From Patescibacteria group bacterium (lineage in GTDB: Bacteria > Patescibacteriota > Patescibacteriia > JAZDEU01): a DNA stretch of 38,544 nucleotides. The position numbers were made by a program, and so were the translations under genes. The notes beneath the pieces are model-generated. The model ran no database searches and was not told the origin of the DNA. It saw nothing but the letters and a program-made list of their open reading frames with translations. Positions within the stretch are counted from its first letter, which is position 1, and each line of letters opens with the position of its first letter. Location: the NCBI GenBank assembly GCA_042568285.1, contig JBHPIX010000004.1, forward strand, positions 1 through 38,544. The letters are read 5' to 3'. Below, in pieces: positions 7,298-35,878 of this stretch.

Positions 7298-7620
7298 ACA
7301 AGTATCCAGTCAAAAGGAGTCATACACGATATATGGGCTACTTATTATAATAATTTGATTGAGTGACTTTAATAAAATTTACAATGAGAAATTTTATCCG
7401 CCAAATCGGCGGATTAAAACAATTTTAAATAACAAATAATAAATTTTTCAAAATCGCAATATTTATTACATATTAACGCATAAAGTACTAATAATATAAA
7501 TATAATTAAAAATATTTTAAAAGAATTATTATCAGTTTAATGTTTGGTTATTTAAGATTTAAGATTTAATATTTAATATTTTTTTAAAATTTAAAATTTG
7601 TCATTGAAAATTTGTTCCCT

Positions 7621-9201: not shown

Positions 9202-9346
9202 TGTCATCCCGCACTTGATGCGGGATCTAGGATAAAACCATTAGTATTATTTTACTTAATTAATCCTTTATAAATACACATCTGAAGTTCTTAATTCTGG
9301 ATTCCGTGTCAAGCCCGCCGAATAGGCGGGCAAGCACGGAATGACA
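9202..9346. repeat. TGTCA-tagged paired palindromic element (REPIN/RPE-like)
   Basis: TGTCATCCCGCACTTGATGCGGGATC ... GGATTCCGTGTCAAGC[insert]ACGGAATGACA. Confidence 0.85.
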
Positions 9347-10389: not shown

Positions 10390-10493
10390 TGTCATCCCGC
10401 ACTTGATGCGGGATCCAATTATTTAAGCTAAATTTTAACTTTCTGGATCCCGTGTCAAGCCCGCCGAATCGGCGAGGCAAGCACGGGATGACA
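10390..10493. repeat. TGTCA-tagged paired palindromic element
   Basis: Same arms as 9202-9346, including the nested CCGCCGAATCGGCGAGG insert. Confidence 0.85.
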
Positions 10494-14102: not shown

Positions 14103-14675
14103 CTAAAAAGCGCAATCTCCGCCCAAGGTTATTATTCCATTGCTCCCGCTTCCATAATGAAAATATGTGCCATTGCATGCTGTAACACCGTCTTTGCTTT
14201 CCAAGTAGTGCGGATAATTTTCTAAACCAAAAATAATCATATACCACTGCCCAGCTCCGCCATACCCGTTCGCATAATAAAAAATGGTTCCTCCATTATA
14301 TGGCCTAAAATTCGGGGCCCCGCCTTGTTTTGGATCTAAAGGATCTTTAGATATAAATTCAGATAAATTAACAACGCCTCTCCGCACCCAATGATCATTA
14401 GAGAGCGATTCAACACTATTACACCACCCCCCGTTTGGGCTTGTTGCTCCGCAATTACCAGAAACAGGATAAGCTCCATTTTTGTCGTAATACAATTCAA
14501 GCGCAGTTTGAAGCTGTTTTATTTCCGCTAACCTTCTTGCGTCTCTAGCTTTAGCGCGAGCATTATCTAAACTCACAAAAGCAATGCTAGACAAAAGACC
14601 AATAACAGCTATAACCACTAAAAGTTCAATAAGTGTAAATCCTATTTGTCGTTGATTATATTTAGAATGCTTCAT
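14103..14675 (-). CDS. Type IV pilin / GspG-like prepilin
   Basis: GFTLIELLVVIAVIGLL prepilin motif; KARDARR...ALELYY. Confidence 0.92.
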   Translation of the reverse strand: MKHSKYNQRQIGFTLIELLVVIAVIGLLSSIAFVSLDNARAKARDARRLAEIKQLQTALELYYDKNGAYPVSGNCGATSPNGGWCNSVESLSNDHWVRRGVVNLSEFISKDPLDPKQGGAPNFRPYNGGTIFYYANGYGGAGQWYMIIFGLENYPHYLESKDGVTACNGTYFHYGSGSNGIITLGGDCAF

Positions 14676-14679
14676 ATTA

Positions 14680-14985
14680 CTAATTAGGCACGAACTGATT
14701 CACTGGAATCTCTCCTAAAATATTATTTTTTTTGTTTCTCCCAAAAACTAAAAACAAACTAAAAATGATTGACACCACCACAAACACTAACAAAACATAA
14801 TTTGCCTGATTTTCATTTTTTATCAATCCGCCGGAATATTTTACCGTCCACCGAACAATTTTTGGAGTTCCCGGACGAAAAAAATATTTTGGCGACTGCT
14901 TTTCGCTTAAAATCCTTTCACTTAAATCACTAGGAAATTTATGACTTAAATCTATTTCACTTTTATTTTTTTCTTCTTGGTCCAT
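14680..14985 (-). CDS. Small membrane protein, copy 1
   Basis: Duplicate of 15733-16062; C-terminal TM helix. Confidence 0.8.
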   Translation of the reverse strand: MDQEEKNKSEIDLSHKFPSDLSERILSEKQSPKYFFRPGTPKIVRWTVKYSGGLIKNENQANYVLLVFVVVSIIFSLFLVFGRNKKNNILGEIPVNQFVPN

Positions 14986-14998
14986 AATAATATTTTTA

Positions 14999-15183
14999 GG
15001 GGACTGTTGCCGAATGCTCCTTTAGGCATAAATTTTCAGATTTTGAGGCATAATTTTTTGAACAATTTTTGCGGTTTAGCCTTAGCTAAGCCAAAAGAAT
15101 TTTCAGAAAATTTGACCAAAATATGGAAATTTAGGACAAAGAGGCCTGCCCGCCGTATTGGAGGGTATTTGGCAACAGTCCCC
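14999..15183. mobile_element. MITE (185 bp), TIR GGGGACTGTTGCC, flanked by TA
   Basis: Perfect 13-bp TIRs; empty site visible in the paralogous region near 16070. Confidence 0.8.
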
Positions 15184-15203
15184 TAATTTAAAAATTTTGA
15201 AAA

Positions 15204-15728
15204 TTACTGTTCAAACCCACCTGTCACCCAATCAAACTCATTTTGCCAATTTCTAGTAGGACAACTCCAACCGGGACTTGAAGGATGTGGTCGTCCGCTT
15301 CCTTCCATGTCTCTAACCCCTAAAACATAAAATTCTCCATTTGAAGAATCGCATCCATAGCTTCCTGCATTATAAACATAATAACTATAGTATTGACCGC
15401 TGCCAGAAGTATTAATTGGATCCACAGGCACTGCGCTCATATATCCATCATCTTTTAAAGAATCTATAAAATCTCCGCCATCTTCGTAGCTATGTTCCCA
15501 ACTTCCATTGCTAGAATTTTCTTGAGGATAATTTATATTTTCATCATAATACAATTCCAAAGCAGTAATTATTTGCCTCATATCAGCTAACCTTCTTGCG
15601 TCTCTAGCTTTAACTCTAGCATTATCTAAACTCACAAAAGCAATGCTAGACAAAAGACCAATAACGGCGATAACCACTAAAAGTTCAATAAGTGTAAATC
15701 CTTTATTTTTGTTGTATCGTAAATTCAT
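15204..15728 (-). CDS. Type IV pilin / GspG-like prepilin
   Basis: MNLRYNKNKGFTLIELLVVIA; start reassigned to ATG 15728. Confidence 0.92.
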   Translation of the reverse strand: MNLRYNKNKGFTLIELLVVIAVIGLLSSIAFVSLDNARVKARDARRLADMRQIITALELYYDENINYPQENSSNGSWEHSYEDGGDFIDSLKDDGYMSAVPVDPINTSGSGQYYSYYVYNAGSYGCDSSNGEFYVLGVRDMEGSGRPHPSSPGWSCPTRNWQNEFDWVTGGFEQ

Positions 15729-15732
15729 AATT

Positions 15733-16062
15733 TTAAAATTCCATAGGAGGCGCAACTTCAGCAAATGGCGCTTCTGCCGCAGGCGCAAAAGTTTCTTGTT
15801 TATTTTTTTTGTTTCTCCCAAAAACTAAAAACAAACTAAAAATGATTGACACCACCACAAACACTAACAAAACATAATTTGCCTGATTTTCATTTTTTAT
15901 CAATCCGCCGGAATATTTTACCGTCCACCGAACAATTTTTGGAGTTCCCGGACGAAAAAAATATTTTGGCGACTGCTTTTCGCTTAAAATCCTTTCACTT
16001 AAATCACTAGGAAATTTATGACTTAAATCTATTTCACTTTTATTTTTTTCTTCTTGGTCCAT
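15733..16062 (-). CDS. Small membrane protein, copy 2
   Basis: 15800-16073 appears identical to 14723-14996 (274 bp). Confidence 0.8.
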   Translation of the reverse strand: MDQEEKNKSEIDLSHKFPSDLSERILSEKQSPKYFFRPGTPKIVRWTVKYSGGLIKNENQANYVLLVFVVVSIIFSLFLVFGRNKKNKQETFAPAAEAPFAEVAPPMEF

Positions 16063-16249
16063 AATAATATTTTAATTTAAAATTTTTTCTTTTACAAAAT
16101 GTTATTCAAGCCACCTGATCGGACAGCCTGCGGATATATGAGGTTTGATTTCGTCGGCAACGAACTGTCTTTCTTTTATTATAACACATAATACACCTAA
16201 AAAACATAGCAAGCCCCTAAACAGATTCTTAATCTTCTCTTTTTTTCTA

Positions 16250-16480
16250 GTGCGCCCAGGGGGATTCCTGCCCCGTGTTTATCACGGGGTGAACCCCCTA
16301 TGCTATTATTCTCACTTTTCTTATCCGTGCGCCCAGGGGGATTCCTGCCCCGTGTTTATCACGGGGTGAACCCCCTATGCTATTATTCTCACTTTTCTTA
16401 TCCGTGCGCCCAGGGGGATTCCTGCCCCGTGTTTATCACGGGGTGAACCCCCTATGCTATTATTCTCACTTTTCTTATCC
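16250..16480 (-). repeat. Three tandem 77-bp units, each with the tRNA-Lys 3' end and a hairpin inserted in the T-loop
   Basis: Units start at 16250, 16327, 16404; minus strand GGGGTTCA[CCCCGTGATAAACACGGGGCAG]GAATCCCCCTGGGCGCAC. Confidence 0.9.
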
Positions 16481-16481
16481 G

Positions 16482-16555
16482 TGCGCCCAGGGGGATTTGA
16501 ACCCTCGACCGTTTGCTTAAGAGGCAACTGCTCTACCAAGCTGAGCTATGAGCGC
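16482..16555 (-). tRNA. tRNA-Lys(CTT)
   Basis: GCGCTCA/TGGGCGC acceptor, TTGC-CTCTTAA-GCAA anticodon arm, GGGTTCAAATCCC. Confidence 0.93.
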
Positions 16556-16560
16556 ATTAT

Positions 16561-16824
16561 TTAAATAACTTCATTTAATTTTAAAATATCTCTTATTTGC
16601 CGTCTCAATAATCTTTTACCATCCGTGGTCTTTAAAAATTTCTCTCTTCTCTCTGCATCACTTTTTAAACTATAAGATTCATAATGAATTAATTTTAAAG
16701 GTCTTCTATTTTTGGTAGACTTAACTTTACCATACTGATGTTCTTTATAACGTCTTTTTAAATCATCTGTAAAACCTGTATACAGTTGTTTATTTTTTAA
16801 TAATAATATATAAACATAATACAT
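16561..16824 (-). CDS. GIY-YIG nuclease family protein (87 aa)
   Basis: MYYVYIL...LYTGFT.DLKRR..EH..G.VKSTKNRRP...E...A..RE; the longer ORF start overlaps a tRNA. Confidence 0.9.
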   Translation of the reverse strand: MYYVYILLLKNKQLYTGFTDDLKRRYKEHQYGKVKSTKNRRPLKLIHYESYSLKSDAERREKFLKTTDGKRLLRRQIRDILKLNEVI

Positions 16825-16833
16825 ATTATTCTG

Positions 16834-16911
16834 TGCCTCGGAGAGGAATTGCCCTATCATCCGATAGGGCACCCCGTCGCATGACGGGGTGAACCCCACA
16901 ACACCTTGGTC
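16834..16911 (-). pseudogene. 3' half of a tRNA-Arg-like gene with two hairpins inserted in the T-loop
   Basis: GACCAAGGTGTTGTGGGGTTCA[hairpins]AATTCCTCTCCGAGGCA; acceptor strand complements the fragment at 17036-17042. Confidence 0.75.
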
Positions 16912-16930
16912 CGCCCCGCCCAATTTTTTG

Positions 16931-17003
16931 CGCGCTCTGGAGGATTCGAACCTCCAACACCTGGTTCCGAAGACCAGTGCTCTATCCATTGAGCTAAGAG
17001 CGC
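16931..17003 (-). tRNA. tRNA-Arg(TCG)
   Basis: GCGCTCT/AGAGCGC acceptor, CTGGT-CTTCGGA-ACCAG anticodon arm, GGTTCGAATCC. Confidence 0.95.
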
Positions 17004-17019
17004 AAAAATTTAAGCGTGG

Positions 17020-17042
17020 CTATCCAATTGAGCTACCGAGGC
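17020..17042 (-). pseudogene. 5' fragment of a tRNA (acceptor strand plus partial D-arm)
   Basis: GCCTCGGTAGCTCAATTGGATAG. Confidence 0.7.
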
Positions 17043-17072
17043 ATTTATTTTATAACTATTCTTTTAATATTA

Positions 17073-17179
17073 TTGGTCCGCCACGGGATTAACCCGTGGC
17101 GCCCCGTGTTTACTTGTCCCGTCGTATGACTGGGATCACGGGGCGAAGCCAAGTACTCTATCCATTGAGCTACGGATGC
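17073..17179 (-). pseudogene. tRNA-Arg(TCG) 5' portion with nested hairpins inserted after the anticodon; 3' end missing
   Basis: GCATCCGTAGCTCAATGGATAGAGTACTTGGCTTCG[insert of about 65 nt]GACCAA. Confidence 0.78.
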
Positions 17180-17246
17180 AAACTGATAACCCCGCCTTTA
17201 AGCGGGGCGAATATATTATTCTATTTTACACAAAATTTTAAATTTG

Positions 17247-18191
17247 TCAATTCGTTACATAAACTCTTTTAATTTCTTCTTCTGCTCTCTGTTCCTCTTG
17301 TTTTCCAGCTCTATAAATAGCTCCTGATATTTGATTAGAAATTAATTTTAATAAAATTTCATTATTAATACTAAAATCTCCTCCAATTTTATCGCCTAAT
17401 AAAATTAGACCGATAACTTTTGAACCAAAAATCATGGGACATCCAATACCTTTATTCATTTTATAATTACTTTTCAAAGAAATAGAATCCTCATTTTTTG
17501 TCCTATAAAAATTTTTGGTTTCTAATATTTCTTGCGATATATTATCATCAGCAAAATTAATTTTTCTACTTATTTCATTTTTAGAACTATAGCCCTCTGA
17601 AGCTAATATAATAATTTCTTTTTTATATAAATCAAAGACAGCAAAAATCGCCTTTTTTATTTTTATAACTCCCATTATGACTTTTAATGCTTTTTTTGCA
17701 AGAATACTTAAATCATCTTCATCAGAAACAATCTGTCCTGTCTTATATAAAGAAACTAATTTATTAGTAGAATGAACTAATCTATGATTTAATCCTTTAA
17801 TAAAACCATTAGAAATAATCTGTCCTATATGAGCATTGTTATTTTTTATTAATTTTTTATAATCAATCCCACGTATAACTAACAATTCACTTTCTTCAAT
17901 AGCAAATGCTGTTTGGTGATGCAATGATTTTTCATCAATTAAAGCATTTGCGGAAATAAAATCATTTTCTTTAAGTATTGCCCAACCTTCTTCATTTTTA
18001 TTATTACTTTGAGATAATTTAATATAACCTGAAATAACTATAAAAAATTCTTTTCTTAGCTCTCCTTTTTTAAATAAAAATGCGCCTTTTTTTACATTTT
18101 TCACATTAACAATCTTTGCTATCTTTTCTACTTCTTGCCTTGTTAAATTGGTAAATAAGCTAACATTTTTTAATAAATTAGAATTTATCAT
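17247..18191 (-). CDS. Cyclic-nucleotide-binding plus GAF domain protein
   Basis: LLKNVSLFTNL...LFKKGE...FFIVISG (CRP-type cNMP fold); C-terminal PMIFGSKVIGLILL...FS..NEILL GAF pattern. Confidence 0.82.
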   Translation of the reverse strand: MINSNLLKNVSLFTNLTRQEVEKIAKIVNVKNVKKGAFLFKKGELRKEFFIVISGYIKLSQSNNKNEEGWAILKENDFISANALIDEKSLHHQTAFAIEESELLVIRGIDYKKLIKNNNAHIGQIISNGFIKGLNHRLVHSTNKLVSLYKTGQIVSDEDDLSILAKKALKVIMGVIKIKKAIFAVFDLYKKEIIILASEGYSSKNEISRKINFADDNISQEILETKNFYRTKNEDSISLKSNYKMNKGIGCPMIFGSKVIGLILLGDKIGGDFSINNEILLKLISNQISGAIYRAGKQEEQRAEEEIKRVYVTN

Positions 18192-18204
18192 ATTTTATCA
18201 GTAA

Positions 18205-18364
18205 GAAACTGTCCGAAAAGTATTTGCGAGACAAAAAATAAAAATTTTTTTCGCAAAAAGTTGAAGATTGAGGAAGCGATATGAGTATATCGTTGACGAA
18301 ATCTGAAGCTTTTTGCGGAAAAAAGATCATTTTTTGTGCCGTGAAGGACTTTTCGGACAGTTTC
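18205..18364. mobile_element. MITE (160 bp), 17-bp TIR GAAACTGTCCGAAAAGT, TAA direct repeats
   Basis: Perfect TIRs; TAA at 18202-18204 and 18365-18367. Confidence 0.8.
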
Positions 18365-18367
18365 TAA

Positions 18368-18391
18368 GGACACGGCATGCCGTGTCCATAC
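18368..18391. repeat. REP-like perfect palindrome GGACACGGCATGCCGTGTCC
   Basis: 20-bp palindrome preceded by GTAT on the minus strand (GTAG-like tag), abutting the MITE. Confidence 0.6.
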
Positions 18392-18397
18392 AATTAC

Positions 18398-19384
18398 CTA
18401 TCTTTCTAAAACAGGCTCAATCAATATTTCTCTCTCATTAATATTTTGATCTTTATCATTAAATACCTGTTTTTCAAAACATTTATAACCTTCCCCATGC
18501 TCCCACTGCTCATCCAAAGATCCGTATGGGTAATAACACTCTTCAATATCATCCATATTAGAAGCCATAAAATTTGAGCATAATTGATACCTATCTTCTG
18601 ATAAAATTTTATAATTAAACTTTTTTCCATCCACCTGATTAACAATATCTTTATTGCTCAAATTAGTACTCCCATTCAAAAGTTCATCTAAATTTTGAGG
18701 TAATCTTTTTTTAGAACTATAAAAATTTTCTACGGCATACTTTAATGAGTTAAACTGATTCAATATCTCACTATCTTGTTTTTTCATTCTTGTATTCATT
18801 GGAGAATCTATAAATATAAATCCAGAAATCAATGTTATCATTACAACTAATAGAGAAATAATAAAATAAATTTTCGCTATTTTATTTTTATTCCCAACTA
18901 TATTTTTTCTTTTAATATCAAATAAATAATAAGTAAATACTCCCGCTGAAATAGAAAGCGCGGTTAAAGCTTTCAAAATAAATTTAATTGTTAGTTCTCC
19001 ATCTAAAAAACTATAAATAACAGATATTAAATATCCTATTATTACAACTGATGCAACAAATAAAATAAAATAAGTCAAGAATTTGCGAACTCCAGACTCT
19101 TCGTCCAATTTTCCTAAAAACAAACTTTTATTTAGCTGTACAGCAAGTGTATAATAAACAGGCGCGGAGATAATAATAGCTGAAATAGCAAATTTTAAAG
19201 CGCTTGAAGAATAACAAGCTCTATAAGATGCGATCACATCAACTATATTTTTATTTATAATTTGAAAAATAATTATTCCTACAGAAACAGCCATAAACCC
19301 TAAAGCGACTAATGACAACATATAAAAAAAGGAATATTTCGCGGAATTATTGTCTGCTAAATTATTTTGATTTTGTTCTTCCAT
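18398..19384 (-). CDS. Multi-pass membrane protein (DUF5671-like)
   Basis: About 5 TM helices followed by SP...R...D...LP..L and YQLC soluble domain. Confidence 0.75.
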   Translation of the reverse strand: MEEQNQNNLADNNSAKYSFFYMLSLVALGFMAVSVGIIIFQIINKNIVDVIASYRACYSSSALKFAISAIIISAPVYYTLAVQLNKSLFLGKLDEESGVRKFLTYFILFVASVVIIGYLISVIYSFLDGELTIKFILKALTALSISAGVFTYYLFDIKRKNIVGNKNKIAKIYFIISLLVVMITLISGFIFIDSPMNTRMKKQDSEILNQFNSLKYAVENFYSSKKRLPQNLDELLNGSTNLSNKDIVNQVDGKKFNYKILSEDRYQLCSNFMASNMDDIEECYYPYGSLDEQWEHGEGYKCFEKQVFNDKDQNINEREILIEPVLER

Positions 19385-19511: not shown

Positions 19512-20555
19512 TTAATCTTTTAAACTTTCCGGATTTATCATATACGCCTGCGCGACCTCTTTAGCAATCACGCCAGAGCTATATAATCTTTTTATATCCT
19601 GATCCAATGACTGCATACCCTCTTCCGCGCTTGTCTGAATAGCAGTGCCTATTTGCGCGATTTTATTTTCTCTAATCATATTTGAAATAGCAGGTGTATT
19701 AATTAACAATTCTCTAGTGGCAATTCTCCCTCCTTTTGTTTTTGGCAAAAGTCGCTGAGAAATGACGCCAGCTAATGTCATTGACAATTGCAAACGAATT
19801 TGAAATTGCTGATATGGAGGGAATATATCAATTATTCTGTCTACTGTCTGCGCGGCGCTAAATGTATGCAAAGTGGCTAAAACTAAATGACCTGTTTCAG
19901 CCATTGTTATAGTTGCCGCAATTGTTTCTAAATCTCTCATCTCTCCAACCATAATAACATCTGGATCCTGACGCAAAACATGTTTTAATCCTTCATTAAA
20001 AGACAACACATCTGAATTCAACTGCCTTTGCTTTATAATACTCTTATTAGAAGCATATATAAACTCTATTGGGTCTTCTAATGTCATTATATGGCAAGAT
20101 CTTTCTTTATTTATCAAATTTATCATTGCGGCTAAAGAGGTTGACTTACCGCAACCCGTAGGTCCTGTAAAAACAACTAAGCCTTGCTTTAATCTAGCTA
20201 ACTTATATATCATTTCTGGCATATCAAGATCTTCCATTGTAGGAGGCACGAAATTTATAATTCTAGACACTAGCCCAACATTATCTTTTTCCAAATGTAT
20301 ATTAATTCTAAATCTTCCTAAATTAGTAATCTGATAAGAAATGTCTAATTCTTTATTCTGTTCAAAAATTTTCTGCTGATTTTCTGATAATATACTATAA
20401 ACTAATTTCTTTATACTAGAAGAATTTAAAATAGGCAAACTTTTAATTTCATATAATTCACCATCAACTCTAATAATTGGAGGCTTGCCTACAATCAAAT
20501 GGATGTCAGACGCCTTTCTATCAACGCCTATTTTAAAAATTCCGTTTATAGTCAT
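19512..20555 (-). CDS. pilT: Type IV pilus retraction ATPase PilT/PilU
   Basis: ASDIHL, GPTGCGKST, EDPIE, LRQDPDVIMVGEMRD, AETGHLV.ATLHT; start likely ATG 20555. Confidence 0.93.
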   Translation of the reverse strand: MTINGIFKIGVDRKASDIHLIVGKPPIIRVDGELYEIKSLPILNSSSIKKLVYSILSENQQKIFEQNKELDISYQITNLGRFRINIHLEKDNVGLVSRIINFVPPTMEDLDMPEMIYKLARLKQGLVVFTGPTGCGKSTSLAAMINLINKERSCHIMTLEDPIEFIYASNKSIIKQRQLNSDVLSFNEGLKHVLRQDPDVIMVGEMRDLETIAATITMAETGHLVLATLHTFSAAQTVDRIIDIFPPYQQFQIRLQLSMTLAGVISQRLLPKTKGGRIATRELLINTPAISNMIRENKIAQIGTAIQTSAEEGMQSLDQDIKRLYSSGVIAKEVAQAYMINPESLKD

Positions 20556-20655
20556 AACTTCAAAAAAACAAGAAAACAATAAAACAACAAAACAATTGTT
20601 TCATCGCTTCTTTATTTTTAAAAGAAAAATAATTAAACTACTAATATTTTACTTA

Positions 20656-35770: not shown

Positions 35771-35878
35771 TGTCATTCCGTGCTTGCCTCGCCGATTCGG
35801 CGGGCTTGACACGGAATCTATGTTAAAAAATTCTATTTTATTACTTTAGCTAGATCCCGCATCAAGCGCGGGATGACA
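35771..35878. repeat. TGTCA-tagged paired element, inverted relative to 9202 and 10390
   Basis: Contains the same nested insert in reverse orientation. Confidence 0.85.

Follow-up and report, generated by a model that had tools for sequence, protein, structure and literature searches.

The window, i.e. the whole 38.5-kb stretch of Patescibacteria DNA that was analyzed, contains a dense series of tRNA genes, tRNA gene fragments and GC-rich hairpins, which is read here on the minus strand from position 17250 to position 16250. In this direction, a promoter-like site is followed by a solo hairpin and by three pieces of dead tRNA-Arg(TCG) genes arranged around an intact tRNA-Arg gene; then come a gene for a small GIY-YIG protein, an intact tRNA-Lys(CTT) gene and three units that each carry a dead tRNA-Lys 3' end. 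Every one of the eight features listed in an earlier reading of this DNA, made from the letters alone (hereafter the sequence-only reading), is present on this strand. The promoter-like site reaches 11/12, the top score among the 10 consensus matches of the stretch 15900-17400.

Table 1. Features of the locus, in the order in which they are met on the minus strand (positions in the window).
Feature	Position	Strand	Remarks
Sigma-70-like promoter	17223..17250	-	TTGACA, 16-nt spacer, TAAAAT; consensus match only, not evidence of function
Solo hairpin after TTCG	17190..17207	-	'Empty' counterpart of the hairpin with tRNA-Arg in its loop
Dead tRNA-Arg(TCG) copy 1	17144..17179	-	5' part; break in the anticodon loop, behind CTTCG
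Two-hairpin module (plug), 65 bases, in the anticodon loop	17079..17143	-	
Dead tRNA-Arg copy 2, 5' stub	17020..17042	-	Acceptor strand and D-arm
Hairpin arms 17019-17004 and 16929-16912 around the tRNA-Arg cargo	16912..17019	-	
Intact tRNA-Arg(TCG) in the hairpin loop	16930..17003	-	ARAGORN; Rfam tRNA 70.6 bits
Dead tRNA-Arg copy 2, 3' part	16834..16911	-	Anticodon loop to 3' end, interrupted in the T-loop
Two-hairpin plug of dead copy 2	16850..16889	-	After GGGGTTCA of the T-loop
Single-domain GIY-YIG gene, 87 aa	16561..16824	-	25 nt past the plug; 5 nt ahead of tRNA-Lys
Intact tRNA-Lys(CTT)	16481..16555	-	ARAGORN; Rfam 61.9 bits
Three identical 77-bp units	16250..16480	-	Each: spacer, GGGGGTTCA, hairpin and CAGG, last 17 bases of tRNA-Lys

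The dead and intact pieces of tRNA-Arg are interlocked. Parts of the solo hairpin recur on both sides of the intact tRNA-Arg gene, its first 11 bases with one mismatch at 17019-17009 and the final 7 at 16920-16914. The acceptor strand in the 5' stub of dead copy 2 can pair with the 3' end at 16840-16834, and 17 D-arm bases of dead copy 1 are identical to those of the intact gene. The layout on C22 is alike, with an intact tRNA-Thr gene between inverted arms inside a dead tRNA-Thr gene. In the plug of dead copy 2, hairpin 2 is an inverted, diverged copy of hairpin 1 (13/18 bases). Its CGGATGA loop (16861-16855) was considered as an acceptor-end remnant of dead copy 1, an idea that was dropped as the word recurs in second hairpins of other genomes. 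A scan of 15500-18000 with Rfam (E up to 10) found only the two tRNAs and chance-level matches, hence no known RNA between the tRNA halves; a group I intron in a tRNA gene was rejected, given that no intron family appears in Rfam and the pieces do not sum to one gene.

The 77-bp units form a perfect tandem array (TRF: period 77 bp, 3.2 copies, 100% identity, 16250-16497), the copy number being that of the assembly. Such perfect identity in a metagenome bin of 81 contigs could point to an artefact of short-read assembly, i.e. to collapsed or chimeric tRNA-gene repeats. This explanation is hardly credible: the same layouts are present in dozens of independent assemblies, some of them consisting of 1-3 contigs, and an unrelated Patescibacteria MAG has two tandem units of this kind downstream of its tRNA-Lys(CTT), so that only the number of tandem units is really at risk. 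An allele without the cassette was sought by synteny of the upstream 314-aa gene, and among 40 relatives there was no close one with the same neighbors; a metagenome scan with this gene yielded no match.

The hairpins of the locus share a core and the word that precedes them. The pattern CCCCG-N(3-12)-CGGGG has five matches in the window, all inside 16271-17207, against a mean of 0.00 in 100 dinucleotide shuffles. A sixth CCCCG...CGGGG hairpin, with an interior of 32 nt, lies at 17102-17143, where a small hairpin is nested within the loop of another. The sequence-only reading had placed each of these hairpins directly after TTCA or TTCG, which holds for all six on the minus strand (TTCA in four, TTCG in two); since the tandem unit accounts for three of the six, the number of independent junctions is four. 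Its view that tRNA loops supply the tetranucleotide applies to the T-loop and to the Arg anticodon loop; the TTCG ahead of the solo hairpin lies in no recognizable tRNA piece. The proposal that stem and tag are kept together stands for the CCCCG common to all stems, which diverge beyond it (CCCCGTG, CCCCGTC or CCCCGC), and fails for the tag: the 19-base hairpin of the tRNA-Lys units has 31 public occurrences, and because 25 of them have flanks other than TTCR, we take this word to be a target, not a tag forming part of the hairpin. A fixed target duplication of two bases was likewise rejected; it fits double hairpins that end in CG or CA and fails for single hairpins with CAGG, CAAG or TAAA tails.

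As a side observation, TTCG can pair with a following CGAA, which merges the plug into one long stem.

The 87-aa protein matches Pfam family PF01541 over residues 1-70 (55.4 bits, cut-off 22.6; E 7.9e-15) with no other match and therefore no second domain; none of the NCBIfam families is matched. Homing endonucleases of the SegB type possess a DNA-binding domain in addition to the catalytic domain; in contrast, the protein of the window is the catalytic domain alone. Eight nuclease paralogs in the host genome share 34-55% identity with it, and residues Y5, Y15, G17, R25, H29 and E61 are invariant among the eight. We take Y5, Y15, R25, H29 and E61 to be the equivalents of the catalytic Tyr-Tyr, Arg, His and Glu of I-TevI. 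The protein has 21 matches among phage records, all below 60% identity and none of them close. Its nearest solved relatives by sequence are the UPF0213/YhbQ-type structures PDB 1zg2 (E 1.6e-8) and 1ywl (E 1.5e-7); proteins of this type fall into the same size class, and we found no link between them and tRNA genes described in the literature.

Homologs are widespread, being present in 177 out of 201 genomes of the class (E <= 1e-8) with 0 to 18 family matches per genome and about 825 in all, and they are tied to tRNA genes; a set of 401 genomes contains still more matches. In the host genome, seven of eight tRNA-type nuclease copies have a tRNA gene at a distance of at most 134 bp, while one copy (C66) lies away from tRNA genes. 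In other genomes, a tRNA gene is located within 200 bp of 46 out of 75 copies, a set that represents best-scoring matches, not a random sample, and includes related genomes that are not independent. All 46 copies share the strand of their tRNA gene, which suggests that both are probably co-transcribed; the tRNA gene lies past the nuclease gene in 32 cases and ahead of it in 12, and the two overlap in the other two. For 27 of the 75 copies, no tRNA gene was present within the sequence examined (700 to 1500 bp per side). This outcome supports the sequence-only reading, which had proposed to test close GIY-YIG homologs for flanking tRNA fragments. A literature search retrieved no published description of a tRNA-linked cassette family.

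The closest comparison is with the Ssn family, known from SsnA of Neisseria meningitidis and the NTS/SRM hairpin repeats that accompany it (Chenal et al. 2025, PMC11893778). Ssn proteins are described there as having a single GIY-YIG domain and as cleaving single-stranded DNA next to their own hairpin repeat, and the authors liken the repeat-gene-repeat arrangement to an insertion sequence (PMC11893778). According to that description, both systems combine a GIY-YIG protein of about 90 aa without a further domain (about 94 aa in Ssn, 87 aa here) with short GC-rich hairpin repeats which flank the gene and scatter through the genome. The differences are phylogenetic and positional. The tRNA-type proteins are a clade of their own, which a branch with 100/99 support sets apart from the 29 Ssn-like proteins found in this class. 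Their partner is the tRNA gene, found within 200 bp in 46/75 versus 3/29 copies, and not the SRM (0/75 versus 11/29 within the same distance); this Ssn-like set is defined by likeness to an SRM-flanked gene of the host genome (C49), with neither CDD nor the N. meningitidis protein as its reference. Finally, the hairpins studied here do not follow the SRM pattern and are placed inside tRNA loops; the word tRNA is absent from the main text of the Ssn paper (PMC11893778).

Plugs are also present elsewhere in the host genome. Against 41 detected tRNA genes, there are 13 loci at which a hairpin splits a copy of a tRNA T-loop after TTCR or, in tRNA-Tyr, after TCCG; in all 13, the plug divides the duplicated stretch at one and the same base, with GGTTCR before it and AAYCC after it. 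This genome-wide result supports the tRNA bias suspected from the window. The modules themselves recur: the 65-base module of the Arg anticodon loop differs in a single base from a module in a tRNA-Val T-loop copy on C59, and a second module type resides in dead copies of tRNA-Arg(TCT), tRNA-Ser(GCT) and tRNA-Trp (two). Because near-identical modules are found at different tRNA loci, we regard the modules as the recently mobile part. No GIY-YIG gene lies beside nine of the 13 T-loop plug loci, which counts against a tie between plug and nuclease. The plugs probably act like non-autonomous elements that are moved in trans, with the nuclease genes as older residents.

The same genome offers material for another interpretation. 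With 521 non-redundant perfect hairpins in 994 kb, the host is rich in GC-rich hairpin families; the published SRM pattern has 80 matches, compared to 0-1 in five shuffles, and the Ssn-like gene on C49 is situated between SRMs. Furthermore, seven of the 31 public stretches with the 19-base tRNA-Lys hairpin have TGACA after it, i.e. the SRM layout on the other strand. The hairpins could hence be independent palindromic repeats, REP- or MITE-like or related to Ssn and moved by the Ssn-like nuclease of this genome, which survive best in dispensable DNA, dead tRNA copies included, and the GIY-YIG gene, missing near most of the T-loop plug loci, would be a passenger or an unrelated neighbor. We consider this unlikely, because none of the plugs in 15000-18500 fits the SRM pattern, SRMs are not found near any of the 75 tRNA-type genes, and the exact position of the plugs in different tRNAs tracks the clade of the nuclease, as described below.

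The protein of the window is placed in a clade of eight members with a support of 100/98, recovered in 100% of 200 bootstrap trees. This clade was chosen from the first tree ahead of testing, and 22 new members were added by E-value to the clade profile, not by tree placement. A hairpin directly after YYCR, upstream of the nuclease gene and on its strand, is present in all eight defining members and, according to a strict script, in 15 of the 22 new ones; a reading by eye raises the latter number to 19, the additional four resting on imperfect stems. In the other tRNA-type clades, such a junction occurs in only 5 out of 70 rows. Exceptions among the new loci are L167 and L170, which lack an upstream junction, and L183, which has TGCG instead. 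The plug lies 8-73 nt ahead of the start codon throughout the clade, a further point against hairpins that are independent of the nuclease. The words encountered are TTCG, TTCA, CTCG and TCCG: the TTCR of the sequence-only reading is among the probable target words, and the rule proves too narrow and widens to YYCR. Among the 22 new loci, the plug site is the T-loop in ten and the anticodon loop of tRNA-Ser(CGA), tRNA-Arg(TCG) or tRNA-Arg(CCG) in nine, where CTCG belongs to tRNA-Ser(CGA) and TCCG to tRNA-Arg(CCG). The break site of dead copy 1 in the window recurs in a dead tRNA-Arg(TCG) of another genome (L173), again beside a nuclease of this clade.

In this clade, the plug thus stands directly after YYCR, usually before A, in a T-loop or an anticodon loop. 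This clade-specific target rule is what is new here, and it was tested on loci outside those used to find it. There are hints in the sequences that other clades of the family may place their hairpins in other loops. Two accompanying measures have to be read with their construction in mind: the 'other tag' control is uninformative, since the GGCG that separates a plug's two hairpins itself scores as a tag, and the breakpoint tally of 47 junctions, about 35 of them at unpaired positions, serves as a pointer, since it includes false calls in which tRNA arms were taken for hairpins. Together with the 13 loci of the host genome, the clade counts support the central claim of the sequence-only reading, i.e. 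a selfish, tRNA-targeted element that makes duplicates of tRNA segments and puts hairpins behind TTCR, with one intact tRNA copy retained.

The dead copies vary in identity and extent. At 19 clade loci where the comparison is measurable, dead and live copies are identical in six, at least 93% identical in another six, and less alike in seven; identity extends down to 67%. A dead tRNA copy that travels with the cassette was therefore rejected, dead and live copies being identical or nearly so in 12 of the 19. The dead copies are also shortened unequally, from 6 bases up to full length. One could argue that the plugged tRNA pieces are working signals of the operon (leader, processing site, terminator or decoy), that the nuclease is a domesticated host enzyme and that the array is selected for the cell, given that all parts lie on one strand downstream of one strong promoter-like site, that many dead 3' copies match the live tRNA end exactly, and that tandem plugged 3' copies also follow tRNA-Lys(CTT) in the distant MAG mentioned above. 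Such a role is quite improbable in view of the wide range of identity and the irregular trimming of the copies, which resemble decay, of the variation of the nuclease family from genome to genome, and of C10 and C21, where the same plugs occur at stand-alone dead copies with no live tRNA adjoining.

Tyrosine-integrase elements classically leave a direct repeat of the final 17-19 tRNA bases, from the T-loop on, and the repeated tRNA 3' ends of the locus look like this footprint. On this account, the duplications would be att-site scars of decayed integrase-borne islands, and the hairpins would have come later. An integrase-borne island was rejected for the locus, as no integrase domain is present within 4.5 kb on either side and the repeats are split by the plug; nor is there an integrase, recombinase or transposase domain in the ten ORFs of at least 100 aa in 11.7-21.9 kb. 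On the whole, this account is very unlikely: the plug divides the duplicated stretch itself at the same base in the 13 host loci (GGTTCR / AAYCC), 5' halves and anticodon-loop breaks are unlike att sites, and the D-arm of a dead tRNA encloses an intact one.

Hairpin-ended DNA directly 3' of a short target word, action on single strands and many non-autonomous hairpin copies per genome characterize IS200/IS605 and REP/RAYT. The plugs resemble them in following directly after a short word and in their many non-autonomous copies, and the nuclease would likewise act on single strands. A Y1 (HUH) transposase is absent among the ORFs of 11.7-21.9 kb. To our knowledge, GIY-YIG enzymes make no covalent DNA link, so that transposition by Y1 (HUH) chemistry is impossible for the nuclease. 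IS200/IS605 and REP/RAYT are also cited as a parallel in the account of Ssn (PMC11893778).

Two further systems share parts of the arrangement. SegB of phage T4 is a free-standing GIY-YIG homing endonuclease in a tRNA gene cluster (PMC2330249). According to the account given there, the two have in common a free GIY-YIG gene among tRNA genes that is thought to spread with its flanks. The differences are the host, here a bacterial chromosome and not a phage, and the plugged duplicate tRNA genes, none of which are left by SegB as portrayed in that account. In fungal mitochondria, mobile endonuclease ORFs (mORFs) create gene hybrids in Allomyces (atp6) and Glomus (atp6, atp9, cox2, nad3); as described, an mORF that has entered an essential gene carries along or generates a new end for it, so that the gene remains whole and its former native end persists next to it as a dead duplicate (PMC3630166). 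Similarly, dead and live copies of one tRNA flank or adjoin the nuclease gene at the present locus and in its clade. Compared with the mORFs of that description, the present cassette has tRNA genes as targets and a much smaller nuclease, and the duplicate is also split by hairpin modules which sit at a fixed loop position and spread independently.

Taken together, the locus is probably a tRNA-Arg(TCG)/tRNA-Lys(CTT) operon that has been colonized repeatedly by a selfish cassette family of Patescibacteria. This interpretation builds on the anatomy of the locus, on its recurrence, on the link between nuclease and tRNA genes, on the clade-specific site and on the near-identical plugs at different loci, all of which are observed directly; the nuclease would be the mobilizer of the hairpins, a role that we infer, along with its activity, its target and the order of events. 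The cassette would have two parts, i.e. a minimal single-domain GIY-YIG gene in the spacer beside a tRNA gene, on the same strand, and short GC-rich hairpin modules (plugs), usually as an inverted pair. The plugs would enter the loop of a duplicate tRNA gene and kill this duplicate, with a working copy remaining adjacent. We hypothesize that the nuclease resembles the related Ssn enzymes in acting on single-stranded hairpin DNA and that it cuts a 7-base loop after YYCR. Repair of the break from an already plugged copy, by means of a few conserved bases on each side, would copy the plug. Survival would be limited to cells with a second tRNA copy, whether already present or newly gained, so that a dead and a live copy remain together with the nuclease gene. 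Slippage could then amplify the resulting repeats to an array such as the 3 x 77 bp at the end of the locus. A nuclease that cuts YYCR in T-loops would find a target in every tRNA gene of the cell, and the live tRNA copy has no visible protection against cutting; the restriction of its action to single-stranded DNA is our assumption.

More tentatively, the 80-90-aa proteins might represent a second, unrecognized branch of hairpin-guided single-strand DNA nucleases, in which each clade reads one loop of the cloverleaf into which a tRNA gene would fold as single-stranded DNA. The clade of the window would then read YYCR and cut before a purine in a 7-base loop, and nuclease and plugs would together form a drive of the type 'cut an essential gene, supply a spare' that turns over the tRNA genes of Patescibacteria. 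This possibility is the more doubtful of the two.

If these interpretations are true, one selfish cassette family would be breaking, duplicating and replacing a large share of the tRNA genes of these ultra-small bacteria. This turnover would account for the unusual tRNA fragments and tandem arrays that make such genomes difficult to annotate and assemble. A function would be assigned to a very common family of 'hypothetical' nucleases, given its presence in 177 of the 201 genomes sampled. The hairpin-directed single-strand nucleases of the Ssn type would gain a sister group with a testable target, i.e. YYCR in a tRNA loop, and the family would provide a set of tiny site- and structure-specific nucleases that may be of practical interest, too.

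On the minus strand of the window, from 17250 to 16250, intact and broken tRNA genes, GC-rich hairpins and a small nuclease gene follow one another in the order of the table, as read from the sequence. The sequence-only reading had described hairpins set into a tRNA array, and this description is confirmed: the parts it listed are present, and all six hairpins directly follow TTCA or TTCG, three of the six being tandem copies of one unit. The pattern CCCCG-N(3-12)-CGGGG has five matches in the window, all within the array, versus 0.00 expected; the sixth hairpin (17102-17143) has a long interior. In each 77-bp unit, a spacer and GGGGGTTCA are followed by a single hairpin and by the 3'-terminal 17 bases of tRNA-Lys. 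ARAGORN and Rfam detect no tRNA in the array beyond the intact tRNA-Arg and tRNA-Lys.

Parts of the tRNA-Arg/tRNA-Lys array, in order of their minus-strand reading
Feature	Position	Strand	Support
Promoter-like site (TTGACA, 16-nt spacer, TAAAAT)	17250-17223	minus	11/12, best of region
Solo hairpin	17207-17190	minus	
tRNA-Arg 5' part, ends after CTTCG of anticodon loop	17179-17144	minus	
Two-hairpin module, 65 bases	17143-17079	minus	
Second tRNA 5' stub	17042-17020	minus	
Intact tRNA-Arg(TCG), enclosed by hairpin arms	17003-16930	minus	ARAGORN, Rfam
tRNA 3' part; two hairpins split T-loop after GGGGTTCA	16911-16834	minus	
GIY-YIG gene, 87 aa	16824-16561	minus	Pfam PF01541, E 7.9e-15
Intact tRNA-Lys(CTT)	16555-16481	minus	ARAGORN, Rfam
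Three identical 77-bp units	16480-16250	minus	TRF: period 77, 3.2 copies, 100% identity

In its acceptor strand, the stub at 17042 complements the 3' end at 16840-16834; hence stub and 3' part form one dead tRNA-Arg, which has the live tRNA-Arg inside it. The arms that flank the live gene reproduce the solo hairpin – its first 11 bases on the left (one mismatch) and its last 7 on the right – so that this hairpin occurs in two states, empty and with its loop occupied by a tRNA gene. A small hairpin is also nested in the loop of the first hairpin of the 65-base module, and hairpins as well as genes lie within hairpin loops. The tRNA-Arg 5' part has a different acceptor strand and represents a further dead copy. 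Together with the nested live copy, the different acceptor strands reveal at least three generations of tRNA-Arg(TCG), of which only the youngest is intact.

The source genome bin (994 kb, 81 contigs, 32% G+C; the window is contig C34) contains, according to tblastn, eight nuclease paralogues, which are 34-55% identical and keep all catalytic residues, as well as one fragment of another type, located at the end of a contig. Seven of the eight have a tRNA gene on the same strand within 134 bp, and the paralogue flanks carry dead pieces of the neighbouring tRNA, split by hairpins; at the tRNA-Trp locus on C14, the 5' and 3' dead pieces match each other and differ from the live copy. The eighth paralogue (locus L013, C66, 1100-1460) lies away from any tRNA between inverted GC-rich arms, and from its sequence it seems to split a small ORF.

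We call a plug the short GC-rich hairpin module, usually an inverted pair, that is inserted in a loop of a dead tRNA copy. The genome-wide search for hairpins after TTCR, the preference proposed from the sequence alone, bears this preference out: T-loop copies are plugged at 13 loci (detected tRNA genes in the genome: 41), 12 times after GGTTCR and once, in a tRNA-Tyr copy, after GTCCG, the T-loop of tRNA-Tyr itself reading TCCG. Outside intact tRNAs, a hairpin follows GGTTCR in 17 of 404 cases versus 199 of 12,782 for 29 permutations of the word; of the 17, three are copies of a different repeat that lacks tRNA flanks, and the control counts are inflated by other hairpin families with fixed flanks of their own. 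The live tRNA-Trp (C14 15312-15383), which adjoins a nuclease gene, and the live tRNA-Tyr (C17 1104-1187) have TCCG in the T-loop, nearly all other tRNAs TTCG or TTCA. On C10 (16370-16490), a tRNA-Trp-like gene of full length carries a two-hairpin plug in the T-loop and stands by itself.

The 65-base module of the window differs by one base from the module in a tRNA-Val copy (C59), and a second module type is found in dead tRNA copies for Arg(TCT), Ser(GCT) and, in two cases, Trp. By these data the plugs are young and mobile and the nuclease genes old. Two further loci of the source genome involve other parts of the tRNA. At L025 (C37, 950-1370), an intact tRNA-Gln(CTG) is directly preceded by three tandem units of 100 bp, each of which comprises a 5' piece of tRNA-Gln with a hairpin at the D-loop end; they form a 5' mirror image of the tRNA-Lys array. 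At L026 (C22, 8960-9150), an intact tRNA-Thr(CGT), bordered by inverted GC-rich arms, is nested in the D-arm of a dead tRNA-Thr; no nuclease gene was found nearby.

The hairpin pair of a plug consists of two diverged copies of a single asymmetric hairpin, inverted relative to each other. In the T-loop plug of the window, the first hairpin and the reverse complement of the second agree in 13 of 18 bases, and the differences are mostly paired stem changes. Among species-representative genomes, 31 stretches contain an exact match to the 19-base hairpin of the tRNA-Lys units. In six of these, all Patescibacteria MAGs, it stands after GGGTTCG and before a second hairpin and a tRNA 3' end, and a live tRNA of the same strand lies 12-77 nt upstream; in seven, from alphaproteobacterial MAGs, TGACA follows it, which is the SRM layout on the other strand; the remaining stretches have other flanks. 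Such varied flanks indicate that TTCR belongs to the target and not to the hairpin. In one of the Patescibacteria MAGs, a single plugged 3' copy accompanies tRNA-Arg(TCG), two in tandem accompany tRNA-Lys(CTT), and no nuclease gene lies between the two arrays. Another 19-base hairpin, with the stem ATCCGCC, lies in the window at 1757-1775, 1856-1874 and 7396-7414, just after tRNA-Val and near tRNA-Gly; with a TAAAACAA tail it is also present on C8, C12 and C45, once downstream of a tRNA locus, and could represent a terminator or yet another repeat family.

A profile of the eight paralogues matches in 177 of 201 genomes of the class Patescibacteriia (E <= 1e-8), often several times per genome. 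We examined 69 loci of other genomes, a non-random set of best-scoring matches (the 29 first returned and the next 40 of the table). Close homologues do adjoin tRNA genes, as anticipated: among 75 nuclease matches in these best-scoring loci, 46 have a tRNA gene within 200 bp (31 within 60 bp), always on the same strand; two have one farther off, and 27 have none in the examined stretch. The control set consisted of 29 loci with the class's other small GIY-YIG type, which resembles an SRM-flanked gene on C49 of the source genome (Ssn-like): a tRNA lies within 200 bp in 3/29, and the published SRM pattern is present in 11/29. For the type of the window's nuclease (tRNA-type), SRM matches number 0/75. 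A tree of 107 proteins separates the two types with 100/99 support. The gene on C49 (3670-4425, at the contig end) is flanked by two SRM-pattern repeats; NTS-like repeats fitting this pattern number 80 in the source genome versus 0-1 in shuffles, with copies in the window at 9206-9226, 10394-10414 and 35854-35874.

In the same tree, the window's protein belongs to a clade of eight (support 100/98; present in 100% of 200 bootstrap trees), first picked from an earlier quick tree. All eight members have a hairpin pair at a distance of 8-73 nt upstream of the start codon; it immediately follows a TTCG, TTCA or CTCG belonging to a dead copy of a tRNA, and two core types recur among the clade's plugs. 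A clade-profile search of 401 genomes found 44 with a match at E <= 1e-30, mostly one per genome; the 29 returned loci of other genomes comprise seven defining and 22 new ones, the latter assigned by profile match and not by tree placement. A tRNA gene lies within 200 bp in 20 of the 22. A strict script, which requires YYCR with a perfect stem of >=6 pairs (loop 3-8) directly behind it, detects the upstream junction in 15/22 new loci versus 5/70 other tRNA-type rows; in one of the 15 (L186) it chose an inner site, GGGTTCG and a hairpin being visible farther up. Read by eye, L174, L175, L184 and L185 also carry the junction, with one stem mismatch or bulge; L183 has TGCG in place of YYCR, and in L167 and L170 the junction is absent upstream. 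The plug lies in the T-loop in ten new loci and, as checked against the live copies, in the anticodon loop in nine: seven tRNA-Ser(CGA) after CTCG, one tRNA-Arg(CCG) after TCCG and one tRNA-Arg(TCG) after TTCG. This last case (L173) presents the window's operon again, in the order dead Arg, nuclease, live Arg, tRNA-Lys(CTT). Junctions at both loops bear out the proposed TTCR target and extend it to YYCR within a loop of 7 bases; nearly all plugs are followed by A. Dead and live copies of the 22 loci are identical in six, >=93% identical in six and less so in seven (lowest 67%); three are not measurable. At L171 (genome G334, C3, 244005-245044), three tandem clade nuclease genes with a 394-bp period, each with a T-loop plug, precede tRNA-Gln(CTG). 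In other clades hairpins occupy other loops, often the D-loop end, in a tally that includes false calls and serves as a pointer only.

IS200/IS605 and REP systems offer a parallel for the hairpin logic. The closest known systems also include the Ssn nucleases with SRM repeats (PMC11893778), phage T4 SegB (PMC2330249) and fungal mitochondrial mORFs, which leave a displaced gene end (PMC3630166). In none of these is a minimal nuclease found together with tRNA-loop plugs and a spare tRNA; a full-text literature search, covering articles in part, returned nothing on tRNA-linked small GIY-YIG genes or hairpins in tRNA loops. We rate the tRNA-plug cassette as a variant of selfish nuclease-borne elements, among which it belongs. 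An integrase origin of the array is disfavoured, because the ten ORFs of >=100 aa in 11.7-21.9 kb contain no integrase, recombinase or transposase domain: they encode a trehalose synthase-phosphatase fusion, pilins, a cNMP/GAF protein, DUF5671, a PilT-like ATPase, RNase III and NusB, and two are without a Pfam match.

As for the nuclease-borne element, the window's protein consists of the catalytic domain alone (Pfam), and by analogy with the Ssn enzymes (PMC11893778) it probably reads the hairpin in single-stranded DNA. The nuclease would cut a tRNA loop after YYCR, and repair from a plugged copy elsewhere, primed by a few conserved bases on each side, would copy the plug; only cells with a spare tRNA copy would survive, and the repeats would then grow by slippage. 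The weak point of this model is that an unprotected target remains in the live tRNA; cutting is supposed to be limited to rare single-stranded states. Two pilin-like genes with an N-terminal methylation motif and a PilT/T2SSE-type ATPase gene flank the tRNA array (14103-15821 and 19512-20579). Such parts are of the kind used in DNA uptake, a would-be source of single-stranded DNA.
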